Shown piece after piece: positions 7,069 to 10,000 of a stretch of DNA of 32,000 nucleotides. Position 1 is the first letter of the stretch. Each line of letters starts with the position of its first letter. The notes under the pieces are model-generated. The model did no database searches. It worked only from the letters and a program-made list of their open reading frames with translations, and was not told where the DNA came from. This DNA comes from Streptomyces marincola (GTDB lineage Bacteria; Actinomycetota; Actinomycetes; Streptomycetales; Streptomycetaceae): assembly GCF_020410765.1 (NCBI RefSeq), contig NZ_CP084541.1, positions 1,449,444-1,481,443 of the forward strand. Direction: 5' to 3'. Position numbers and translations under genes: made by a program.

Positions 7069-10000
7069 ATGCCTTCCAGTCGAAGAAAAGAGGCGACAGC
7101 CATGAATAGGGAGTCGAGCGTGCGGACGAGTGAACGCGAGCCGGTCGCCATTGTGGGGCTGTCCTGCCGACTGCCAGGAGCCGAGAATCCAGCGGCTTTC
7201 TGGGAGCTGTTGCGCAGTGGCACCAGTGCGATCACCGATGCGCCGGAGGACCGTTGGGACACCGCCGCGGGCTCGGCCGTCCGACGCGGCGGCTTCCTGA
7301 AATCGGTCGCCGATTTCGACGCGGGATTCTTCCGGATCTCGCCGCGCGAGGCCGCGGCGATGGACCCCCAGCAGCGCATCGTCCTCGAACTGGCCTGGGA
7401 GGCACTGGAGAACGCCGGTATCGTGCCCGCCGCCCTGCACGGCACCCGTACCGCGGTGTTCGTGGGGACGCTGCGCGACGACTACGCGGGCCTGGTCCAC
7501 CAGTACGGCGATGAGGCCATCACCCAGCACACCATGGCCGGAGTCAACCGCGGCGTCATCGCCAACCGCGTCTCGTACCACCTCGGCCTGCACGGGCCGA
7601 GCATGACGGTGGACGCGGCGCAGTCCTCGTCCCTGGTGGCCGTGCACCTGGCGTGCGAGAGCATCCGCAACGGCGAGGCGACCACCGCGCTGGCCGCGGG
7701 CGTGACGCTCAACCTCGCCGCGGAGAACGCCGTGACGGAGGAACGGTTCGGCGCGGTCTCACCCGACGGCGTGACATACACCTTCGACGAGCGCGCCAAC
7801 GGCTTCGTGCCCGGCGAGGGCAGCGGCGTCGTGGTGCTGAAGCCGCTGAGCCAGGCCGTCGCCGACGGCAACCACGTCTACGCCGTCATCCGCGGCAGCG
7901 CCGTCAACAACGACGGGACGACCGACGGCCTGACCGTTCCGAGCGCGACGGCGCAGGAGGAGGTGCTGCGGCTGGCCTGGGAACGGGCCGGGGTGAGCGC
8001 GGACAGCCTCCAGTACGTGGAACTGCACGGCACGGGCACCCCGGTGGGCGACCCCGTGGAGGCGGCGGCCCTCGGCGCGGCGGCCGGCGGCCGGGCGGGC
8101 CGGGCAACGGCGCTGCGGGTCGGCTCGGTGAAGACGAACATCGGGCACCTGGGCGGCGCGGCCGGCATCGCGGGGCTGCTGAAGACGGTGCTCGGCATCC
8201 ACCACAGGGAGTTGCCCGCGAGCCTCAACTACGAGACGCCGAACCCGCGCATCCCCCTGGCGGAACTCGGGCTCGCGGTGCAGCGGGAGTTGACGGCGTG
8301 GCCGCAGCCGGACCGCCCGCTGACGGCGGGCATCAGCTCGTTCGGCATGGGCGGCACCAACTGCCACGTCGTCGTGACCGAGCCGCCCGCGCCGGCGGAC
8401 GTGCCGGCGGGCAAGGCGAAGAAGGGCGCGGCGAAGCGCAAGCGGAAGAACGCCGACGGCGCCGATTCCGGCTCTGGTGCCGGTTCTGGCGATGACACGG
8501 TGGTGTGGCTGCTGTCCGGGAAGACCGAGGAAGCCTTGCGCGCCCAAGCCAGGCAACTGGCCGACCACCTCGATGCCCACCCCGACCTCAACGACCGGGC
8601 CATCGCCCACACCCTCGCCACCACCCGCACCCACTTCACCCACCGCGCAGCCATCCACGCCACCACCCCCGACCTGCTCCGCACCGCACTCCACCACCTC
8701 ACCCAAGGCACCCCCCACCCCAACCTCACCACCGGCACCACCCACCCCCACCCCAAAACCGCCTACACCCTCACCGGCCAAGGCTCCCAACACCCCCAAA
8801 TGGGCCAACAGCTCTACCACACCCACCCCACCTACGCCCACACCATCGACCAACTCACCGACCACCTCCAACCCCACCTCCCCCACCCACTCCGCGACAT
8901 CCTCCACGCCCCACCCCACACCCCCCACGCCCAACTCCTCAACCACACCCACATCACCCAACCCGCCCTCTTCGCCACCCACCTCGCCCTCCACCGACTA
9001 CTCGAACACCACGACATACGCCCTGACTACCTCATCGGCCACTCCCTCGGCGAACTCACCGCAGCCCACATCGCCGGCGTCCTCACCCTCACCGACGCAC
9101 TCCACCTCGTCGCACACCGAGGACGCCTCATGCAAGCCGCCCGAACCGGCGGCGCCATGGCCGCCGTCCAAGCCACCGAAGAGCAAGTACGCGCCGCCCT
9201 GGCCGACCACGACCCCGCCACCATCGCCATCGCCGCCATCAACGGCCCCGAAAGCGTCGTGGTGTCGGGTGACAGCGACGTCGTCGAAGCGCTGGTCGCG
9301 CGCTGGCGGGAGCAGGGCCTGCGCGCCACGCCGCTCACCGTCAGCCACGCCTTCCACTCCCCCCACATGGACCACGTCCTCGACGAATTCCGCACCATCG
9401 CCGCCGAGGTCACCTACCACCCGCCGACCATCCCCGTCATCTCCAACGTCACCGGCACCCTCGCCACCACAGAACAACTCACCTCACCCGACTACTGGAC
9501 CCAGCACATCCGCCAACCCGTCCGCTTCCACCACGGCATCCAATACCTGAAGAACCAAGGCGTCACCCACCTCATCGAAATAGGCCCCACCACCCTCGCC
9601 ACCCACACCACCCCCCACATCCCCACCACCCCCACCCTCCGCACCAACCAACCCGAAAACCACACCCTCCACACCACCCTCGCCACCACCCACACCCACG
9701 GCACCCCCACCAACCACCACACCACCCCCCACCCCCACACCCCCCTCCCCACCTACCCCTTCCAACGCCAACGCTACTGGCTGGACGGGGTGCGTCGCCG
9801 CGCCGACGACCGCCGCCCCGAGCTGCCGGCCCCCGCGCCGACGGCCGTTCCCGGCACGCGGGAGCTGCCGGTGGCCGGCGGCCGGTCGGACGCCGAACGC
9901 CGGCAGGCCGCCACGCGCCTGGTCGACGCGCACATCGGCGTCGTCCTCAACTACCAGCAGGGCGAGCGCGTCGACCCGGACGCCACGTTCCAGGACCTGG

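Follow-up and report, generated by a model that had tools for sequence, protein, structure and literature searches.

Polarised keto-to-amino substitutions between skewed and unskewed acyltransferase repeats of a Streptomyces marincola polyketide synthase

[quoted passage not shown] By definition, a GRINS is longer than 500 bp, has more than 80% identity to another region of the same PKS, and has mean absolute GC and TA skews above 0.15. The tracts are 'mostly encoded by C+A' or 'G+T', boundaries are abrupt, and the two skews correlate (r = 0.70). Effects are strongest at third codon positions and are associated with gene conversion. Where the skew is negative, Pro, Thr, His and Gln are enriched, and Gly, Val, Cys and Trp are depleted. 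GRINS were found in 64% of 203 characterised clusters and 37% of 3,551 clusters, most commonly in Streptomyces, and their origin was stated as unknown (PMC8256042 for all of these points). Later GRINS papers use the same definition and offer no mechanism. Here, we analyse a 32,000-nucleotide stretch of the Streptomyces marincola genome (contig NZ_CP084541.1, positions 1,449,444 to 1,481,443, forward strand), which we call the window and to which all coordinates refer. A modular cis-AT PKS is encoded on the plus strand, from position 7069 to the window end. Our subject is a tract in the loading-module acyltransferase (AT), which is part of a GRINS on every count of the definition, and its unskewed relative in the AT of module 2:

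9103-9492, plus strand: the tract under study, in the C-terminal half of the AT of the loading module and within AT-type GRINS copy 1; differs from 17611-18000 at 41 sites, in a polarised way
17473-18096, plus strand: unskewed AT-family member, C-terminal half of the module-2 AT (AT2); 85.6-92.5% identical to the three AT-type GRINS copies; GC skew -0.11 to -0.13, TA skew about -0.03

The tracts at 9103-9492 and 17611-18000 were aligned with MAFFT and compared codon by codon, with 17611-18000 taken as the start and 9103-9492 as the end state. The 390 columns contain no gaps and 41 nucleotide differences: 21 G>C, 14 G>A, 2 T>A, 2 T>C, 1 C>A and 1 A>C. Neither G nor T is gained at any site. A preliminary description of this DNA had arrived at the same total, and the same six class counts, by hand. 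It had also stated that most changes are synonymous and at third positions. This agrees with our recount; 32 of the 41 differences are at third positions, with seven at first and two at second positions, and 29 codon changes are synonymous. A further eight are nonsynonymous (P>T, R>Q, L>H, V>I, E>Q, D>H, V>I and A>T). The replacements listed previously are all among these, while P>T and L>H had been left out. The spectrum is strongly asymmetric (Bowker symmetry test, p = 2.4e-7). At four-fold sites, 20 of 33 G3 and two of three T3 have changed, compared with none of 43 C3 and neither A3. Note that this tract (C176, G97, A74, T43) is among the least skewed parts of the system. Other 300-nt windows reach a GC skew of -0.88 and an AT skew of +0.62 (about 4% G and 6% T), with unskewed sequence directly adjoining.

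If paralogues diverge neutrally, differences between them should, as the earlier account had argued, be roughly symmetric. Controls from unskewed sequence are close to this expectation. Between KS1 and KS3, G is lost at 136 sites and gained at 122 (p = 0.14); between AT1 and AT2, the numbers are 178 and 172. Conversely, every comparison of skewed with unskewed sequence is asymmetric. For DH-KR-ACP, moving from module 1 to module 2, G is lost at 656 sites and gained at 57. The polarity previously suggested between KS3 and its skewed relatives is also recovered. From KS3 (21421-21720) to KS2, 35 changes are from a keto base (G or T) to an amino base (C or A), and six are in the opposite direction; for KS4 the counts are 34 and one. 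Hence, asymmetry is specific to skewed tracts and is not a property of paralogue divergence as such. Because this asymmetry is far beyond chance, has no counterpart in the unskewed controls, and has a direction supported by amino acid comparisons (see below), a directional process, rather than neutral divergence, is needed.

The bias had been described as loss of G. Such loss is real, but the description is too narrow, since T is lost too. Sorted by base class, the tract pair has 39 keto>amino changes, no amino>keto changes and two within-class changes. In the wider AT tract the numbers are 87, 4 and 13, and for DH-KR-ACP of module 1 versus module 2 they are 745, 86 and 241. The loss of T3, per site, is as high as that of G3. 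The bias is therefore from keto to amino bases on the coding strand, and not loss of G alone. Most changes are transversions. These outnumber transitions by 25 to 16 in the tract pair and by 735 to 337 in the DH-KR-ACP comparison. At four-fold sites of the tract pair, there are 17 G>C but only 3 G>A changes. Accordingly, G>A is mainly seen where it is the sole synonymous route to remove G (CAG>CAA and GAG>GAA).

This spectrum bears on the idea that each repeat was hypermutated independently, in situ and strand-specifically, by deamination of cytosine on the template strand, tautomer mispairing or oxidative damage, without conversion. One class dominates (39 of 41) and background substitutions are nearly absent, which suggests that the process outpaces neutral divergence. 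Similarly, eight of nine substitutions between near-identical DH and KR-ACP copies (99.3-99.7%) are keto/amino differences. Both observations fit hypermutation. However, transitions are predicted and transversions dominate, particularly at four-fold sites, while G>T is never seen. Repeat-induced point mutation (RIP), in fungi, and APOBEC/deaminase hypermutation generate C>T/G>A transitions only; RIP targets duplicated DNA and inactivates genes. The resemblance is that mutation is directional and, for RIP, aimed at duplicated DNA. The difference is that changes in the window are mostly transversions and the domains are intact. We rejected deaminase and RIP-like hypermutation, since the transition-only prediction is contradicted by the tract pair. 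Damage producing 8-oxoguanine was also rejected, as this predicts the missing G>T class. Tautomer mispairing (Fig. 6A of the GRINS paper) is the sole explicit chemical proposal made there and gives transitions; 'transversion' is not a word of the main text (PMC8256042). Because transversions exceed transitions, tautomer, deaminase-like and RIP-like processes do not suffice, and the tautomer proposal cannot be the whole story. We consider independent hypermutation unlikely.

We delimited repeats by self-BLAST of the window. The two PKS genes, and the repeats inside them, are as follows:

7069-21184, plus strand: PKS gene A, frame-corrected; loading KS(Q)-AT-ACP, module 1, module 2 and C-terminal docking (from Pfam, module alignment and codon-position profile)
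21239-32000, plus strand: PKS gene B, frame-corrected; N-terminal docking, module 3, module 4 and C-terminal docking (stop codon 31998-32000)
8457-9785 (1329 bp), plus strand: AT-type GRINS copy 1, comprising KS-AT linker, loading AT and post-AT linker; 94.5% identical to 22699-24033 and 98.0% to 28001-29293; GC skew -0.50, TA skew -0.36
22699-24033, plus strand: AT-type GRINS copy 2 (module 3); GC skew -0.43, TA skew -0.30
28001-29293, plus strand: AT-type GRINS copy 3 (module 4); GC skew -0.50, TA skew -0.36
18274-19239, plus strand: DH-type GRINS copy (module 2); 99.3% identical to 23990-24954; GC skew -0.64, TA skew -0.36
23990-24954, plus strand: DH-type GRINS copy (module 3); GC skew -0.65
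19505-20946, plus strand: KR-ACP-type GRINS copy (module 2), the most extreme tract; 99.7% identical to 25154-26596; GC skew -0.72, TA skew -0.47
25154-26596, plus strand: KR-ACP-type GRINS copy (module 3), sister of 19505-20946
15623-16938, plus strand: KS-type weakly skewed repeat (KS2); 91.9% identical to 26656-27971; GC skew -0.22, TA skew -0.18
26656-27971, plus strand: KS-type weakly skewed repeat (KS4); GC skew -0.25, TA skew -0.20

With lengths of 965-1443 bp, identities of 91.9-99.7%, and absolute GC and TA skews of 0.22-0.72 and 0.18-0.47, these repeats lie beyond the GRINS thresholds for length, identity and skew. The comparator at 17473-18096 falls short of the skew threshold and is a duplicated region without skew, a category also recognised in the GRINS paper (PMC8256042). 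In 150-nt windows, GC and TA skews correlate with r = 0.82 inside repeats (335 windows) and 0.50 outside. At third positions, skewed tracts have G3 of 0-4%, C3 of 80-92%, A3 of 8-17% and T3 of about 0; in unskewed parts, G3 is 35-45%, C3 50-60% and A3 2-4%. The extreme KR-ACP copy at 19505-20946 has G3 of 0-2%, C3 of 83-90% and A3 of 8-16%, yet retains its Pfam scores (KR 1.9e-53, ACP 1.4e-13). The other codon positions are also affected; G1 is 9-25% in skewed and about 45% in unskewed sequence, and G2 is 5-11% and about 22%, respectively. The GC content is 0.63-0.69 in skewed tracts and 0.72-0.80 elsewhere. Edges of skew match edges of repeats; the ends of the ACP repeat, at 20946 and 26596, are examples. 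Module 1 (10168-15603), inside gene A, is unskewed, and KS3 (21311-22600), inside gene B, has ordinary composition. Independent hypermutation would account for neither the coincidence of skew and repeat boundaries nor the fact that module 1, which shares gene and strand, is untouched.

As in the published examples, the repeats are located in AT, DH, KR, KS and ACP domains of a Streptomyces-type cis-AT PKS (PMC8256042), and we see no difference in kind. The G-loss between AT copies is one case of an already published, mechanistically unexplained phenomenon, and so its earlier presentation as a new anomaly does not hold. The window does supply three points that are missing from the main text of the GRINS paper (PMC8256042). 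These are the polarised spectrum of a skewed/unskewed pair, the dominance of G>C, and a mosaic that can be followed in both directions, site by site.

We read this mosaic at sites that distinguish AT2 from the loading AT. AT3 has the AT2 state at 24, and then 10, consecutive informative sites (23377-23572 and 23621-23717), and the skewed state elsewhere. A shorter island of AT2 type is found in AT4, at 28884-28980. In AT2 itself, positions 17986-18049 (equivalent to 9478-9541 in the loading AT) form a 64-nt skewed patch, with a GC skew of -0.57, that is identical in all four related ATs. Such sharp, nested switch points show gene conversion, run in both directions between skewed and unskewed AT copies. 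The patch in AT2 shows that conversion has also carried skewed sequence into an otherwise unskewed copy. The three skewed AT copies share the same choice of C or A at essentially every site. We attribute this to common descent by conversion, and not to independent hits; it is a further observation that sits poorly with hypermutation of each repeat. A conversion bias was one option raised in the preliminary description, and the switch points demonstrate that gene conversion is involved.

The comparisons above assume that the unskewed state came first. We found no orthologous cluster with which to polarise the changes at nucleotide level. When contigs were scanned with the unskewed KS(Q), identity peaked at 75% and there was no synteny; of the two flanking enzymes, amine oxidase and FAD monooxygenase, neither exceeded 56% identity. 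Searches for exact-protein matches to these two flanking enzymes returned none, and a search with the loading module gave a full-length identity of about 60% at best. Since contig, protein and loading-module searches yielded no ortholog, sister clusters are missing from the collections searched. Module 1 was tried as a nucleotide outgroup and rejected; identity is 74%, third positions are saturated, and its state mirrors background C3/G3 frequencies. Changes were instead polarised by amino acids, using 116 outgroup ATs of 37-67% identity. The AT2 residue is commoner among these at 24 of 33 informative sites, and rarer at nine (p = 0.014). Differences in outgroup frequency, between AT2 and skewed residues, can be very large: 0.89 against 0.01 for E>H, 0.97 against 0.00 for G>D, 0.94 against 0.00 for L>A, and 0.79 against 0.02 for V>I. 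These frequencies support a skewed state that is derived, and an AT2 version that is ancestral-like, with conserved residues overridden. The direction from ordinary to skewed, previously assumed, is thereby supported at the amino acid level.

For comparison, we fetched 80 other actinomycete PKS loci (given L numbers here). Intense coding-strand skews of both signs are present in many unrelated genes; about 20 loci are G+T-rich (including L004, L017, L033, L046-L049, L055 and L059) and about 7 are C+A-rich (L002, L011, L040, L044, L069, L075, L077 and L081 were noted). In these loci, GC and TA skews always have the same sign, which is mostly uniform within a locus. We rejected domain type as the determinant of sign, since both signs occur in most domains. 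Self-BLAST inside the 80 loci, which are too short for paralogue pairs, gave no pair under strict criteria. Relaxed criteria gave one, in L044, with 199 keto>amino and 68 amino>keto changes.

The same sample speaks to a foreign origin, whereby skewed tracts were imported from a donor PKS or lineage of that composition. Skewed KR and AT tracts of 72-79% identity do occur in other clusters, namely plasmid-borne Streptomyces PKSs, L044 and L075. When the most skewed 2.6 kb was compared with a plasmid collection, matches were partial only, at most 79% identical, and fell in the KR parts of other PKSs from Streptomyces. The external sequences closest to the skewed AT are unskewed ATs (L031, L014 and L008; 73-75% identity, skew -0.06 to -0.16). 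External skewed ATs are no closer to it than unskewed ones, and unskewed AT2 finds equal identity. The preliminary description had allowed for a skewed donor lineage; we looked for one among the external ATs and did not find it. Moreover, AT2 is 85.6-92.5% identical to the skewed copies, which is far closer than any external sequence. Note also that GRINS are only 45-75% identical between homologous PKSs (PMC8256042). Import of the tracts is highly improbable.

The skew has consequences for the encoded protein. Compared with module 1, skewed tracts encode more Thr (22.3 vs 7.0%), His (10.5 vs 3.0%), Pro (11.3 vs 7.1%) and Gln (5.9 vs 2.5%). They encode less Val (0.8 vs 7.1%), Gly (3.9 vs 10.0%), Cys (0 vs 0.2%) and Trp (1.0 vs 1.4%). 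The direction of these shifts is that of the published GRINS pattern. Codon preference is overridden by the skew; CAA and CAG occur 60 and 3 times in skewed tracts, compared with 5 and 41 times in module 1, and GCG and GCC occur 0 and 72 times, compared with 153 and 171. Even so, purifying selection opposes the skew and holds catalytic motifs. Of the 177 positions where modules 1 and 4 share a residue that requires G, 81 retain it, whereas only 19 of 106 variable positions keep G. The motifs DTACSSS, GHSLGE...HAFHS, GATGTLG...YSS...NYAAAN and GFDSL are intact, as are all Pfam KS, AT, DH, KR and ACP matches, with high scores. The skew strips nearly all synonymous G and T, and also reaches codon positions 1 and 2, where it replaces A/V/G/D/E/R/S with T/H/P/Q/N/I/L wherever the protein tolerates this.

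Could selection act on the nucleic acid instead? A structure-free or G-poor mRNA, or single-stranded DNA, might be favoured to translate a giant transcript or to avoid R-loops or repeat hairpins. In keeping with this, sense RNA folds with -11.0 kcal/mol per 150 nt where GC skew is below -0.5, compared with -70.2 kcal/mol in unskewed sequence (Spearman rho = -0.88). Folding of the antisense strand is also weaker (-31.7 vs -72.8). However, we read weak mRNA structure as a physical consequence of a two-letter strand, and not as demonstrated selection. Module 1 and KS3 are in the same transcripts and are unskewed, and a tie to repeats is not predicted. The roughly 20 G+T-rich loci described above have the opposite coding-strand composition, and G+T tracts are also reported in PMC8256042. 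Furthermore, residues conserved in 72-97% of outgroup ATs have been replaced, and the gene-rare codons CAA and GAA are used, which a drive fits better. Selection on the nucleic acid is thus very unlikely, and selection against G in the transcript, as first proposed, is unlikely to be a general cause.

Our data are best described as GRINS whose skew very probably comes from a strand-asymmetric drive during recombination among repeats. Four repeat families (three AT copies and their unskewed relative, and two copies each of DH, KR-ACP and KS) are kept 92-99.7% identical by gene conversion, and the coding strand of the skewed repeats consists of little but C and A. The loading AT has the skewed version, and the module-2 AT the unskewed, ancestral-like version, of one AT family, so that pairwise comparison of the two gives keto-to-amino changes only. 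The drive itself could be biased gene conversion, or a fixation of errors in favour of amino bases on one of the strands, and would be strong enough to fix changes at conserved residues. We infer that such a drive during exchange is the cause, and not transcript selection or a single chemical lesion, because the effect follows repeat boundaries, fixes costly changes, and has a spectrum set by base class rather than one lesion. We also considered, and rejected, a two-ended double-strand-break model with opposite skews to either side of a hotspot; when worked through, the model gives no fixed left/right polarity, and the sequence beside each tract is unskewed and not positively skewed. As a whole, the preliminary interpretation is partly supported; a directional, conversion-linked bias stands, transcript selection against G is unlikely, and novelty does not hold.

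Several points weigh against a recombination-linked drive. The molecular cause of GRINS is unexplained in the literature, and no enzyme is identified from the window. With one window, drive cannot be formally separated from very strong selection. The failure to find an orthologous cluster means that polarity comes from amino acid outgroups only, third positions being saturated. Lastly, two +1 C frameshifts (see below) leave open a decaying cluster or sequence errors, although neither would create skew.

The frameshifts are at runs of C. At 19017-19021 there are five C, where the 99.3%-identical sister DH repeat has four, and the frame shifts inside DH2. At 26235-26241 there are seven C, where the 99.7%-identical sister repeat has six, and the frame shifts between KR3 and ACP3. 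Together, the two extra C split the two PKS genes into four open reading frames, and removing them restores 7069-21184 and 21239-32000. Each extra C is either a homopolymer sequencing error or a real slippage mutation. These insertions indicate that the record is not error-proof, or that the genes are damaged, and are what might favour a sequencing or assembly artefact as the source of the skew. Yet the skew is codon-structured (position 3 > 1 > 2), catalytic motifs and Pfam scores are preserved, and the skew is common to independent copies and to many independent assemblies (see also PMC8256042). An artefact is hardly credible.

If exchange between repeats is biased, mismatch repair is a candidate source of the bias. 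In Actinobacteria, which lack MutS/L, the mismatch repair system is NucS/EndoMS. We suggest, tentatively and with more doubt than confidence, that GRINS could be produced by a blind spot of this system. The Streptomyces enzyme cuts G/T, G/G and T/T mispairs, and has no activity on A/C, C/C, A/A, T/C or G/A (PMC11109965; also PMC6159521). Similarly, in M. smegmatis, C-C, A-A, C-A, A-C and G-A mispairs of an incoming oligonucleotide survive, whereas G-T and G-G are removed, with a patch of 5-6 bp (PMC11551744). This specificity equals the keto/amino partition of the spectrum in the window, although the likeness is a mechanistic analogy and not membership. GRINS papers make no mention of NucS, mismatches or heteroduplexes. 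In the scheme we propose, a single strand from one PKS repeat would pair with a paralogous repeat, either at the lagging-strand template or in a recombination intermediate. Incoming C or A, where the resident strand had G or T, would form C/C, A/C and A/A mispairs that NucS ignores and that would be inherited. Incoming G or T, replacing C or A, would form G/G, G/T and T/T mispairs, and a patch of 5-6 bp would remove these. Over many rounds of exchange, the transferred strand would be ratcheted towards C+A, site by site. The scheme predicts that directional changes are limited to the four keto>amino types on one strand, with unbiased changes within a class (C<>A, G<>T). The predicted class of change is the one seen; directional changes are keto>amino, both in the tract pair and in the wider AT tract. 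A preference of RecA for GT-rich DNA was set aside as a lead, since a GT-rich strand would create the mispairs that NucS removes.

If correct, a NucS blind spot would account for GC and TA skews being coupled, for G>C being dominant, for the restriction to repeats and for the enrichment in Actinobacteria. It would also explain both polarities, according to which strand is transferred, and the fixing of mildly deleterious replacements. Annealing to the lagging-strand template would further predict lagging polarity of the C+A-rich strand. In four of four chromosome-level PKS loci that can be oriented, the C+A-rich strand does have this polarity. The assignment is robust on linear Streptomyces chromosomes for L055 (CP188184, 8.06 of 9.64 Mb) and L081 (CP119133.2, 8.74 of 9.26 Mb), while L044 (CP192037) and L059 (CP192044) fit only if oriC is at the record start; four loci are too small a sample to conclude anything. 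The small number of oriented loci counts against the NucS explanation, as do reports of GRINS in cyanobacteria, firmicutes and amoebae. So too does tylactone synthase, where both skew signs occur in one gene (PMC8256042).

Three other sources of local or strand-specific composition can be compared. Chromosomal skews are small, uniform over megabases, and change sign only at the origin and terminus. They are alike in that G and T are co-enriched on one strand, with the C+A-rich strand lagging in the four loci above. They differ in that skew in the window ranges from about 0 to -0.88, switches over 150-300 nt many times inside a single gene, and is delimited by the repeats. We rejected transcription-coupled asymmetry, which should cover a whole transcription unit, because module 1 and KS3 are ordinary inside the same open reading frames. 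GC-biased gene conversion is exemplified by runaway GC evolution that is reported to alter conserved residues in gerbil genes (PMC7403616, PMC6573468). It too is a recombination-associated, non-adaptive drive, with local effects on base composition that can prevail over purifying selection at the amino acid level. It favours G and C equally on both strands and raises GC; in the window, GC falls, and A3 goes up, from about 3% to 8-17%. What is asymmetric here is one strand against the other, keto versus amino, and not GC against AT.

All extension modules of the PKS have the order KS-AT-DH-KR-ACP. Because GHSxGE and HAFH motifs are present in five of five ATs, we infer malonyl specificity throughout and a putative polyene-type product. 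In DH4 (about 29680-29850), about 45 residues present in DH1-3 are missing, including the region of the YGP motif (alignment columns 1122-1175). DH4 is probably inactive, and module 4 would then leave a hydroxyl group. Module 2 has unskewed, low-complexity acidic insertions at 19330-19510, in the DH-KR linker, and at 16850-16950 (TDTDTDTDD, in the KS-AT linker). Both are missing from the module 3 sister repeat, and they break up otherwise near-identical repeats. From 29800 to 32000 (module 4 psi-KR, KR, ACP and docking) there is a mild skew of opposite sign, with a GC skew of +0.10 to +0.17. Third positions here have G3 of 48-61%, C3 of 31-47% and T3 of up to 12%. The onset of this positive skew is abrupt, at the end of the negative skew (about 29750), and its strength falls short of the GRINS threshold. 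The stretch has no second copy within the window; a partner may lie downstream of it. Three further genes precede the PKS:

26-1801: LAL/MalT-type regulator fragment, C-terminal TPR part
3421-4809, minus strand: FAD-binding monooxygenase
5023-6330: flavin amine oxidase

One or two amine oxidases also lie just upstream in many of the fetched KS(Q)-led PKS loci (L015, L017, L020, L025, L026 and L033). Such an arrangement suggests clusters of one family, for amine-containing polyenes or polyketide alkaloids.

As an observation, the skewed tract carries little weight, since a PKS specialist would recognise GRINS at once. Its value is as a clean case for the cause of skew. One repeat family has both skewed and unskewed versions, and its history can be read almost substitution by substitution. 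Changes that are keto-to-amino, mostly transversions, derived and exchanged in patches exclude deaminase-type and transition-only explanations. Such a spectrum points to a bias in repair or recombination, which is genetically testable. There are also practical implications. The poly-C runs of GRINS are likely to give rise to frameshift errors when such clusters are assembled and annotated, and GRINS mark natural recombination joints that are used in PKS engineering.

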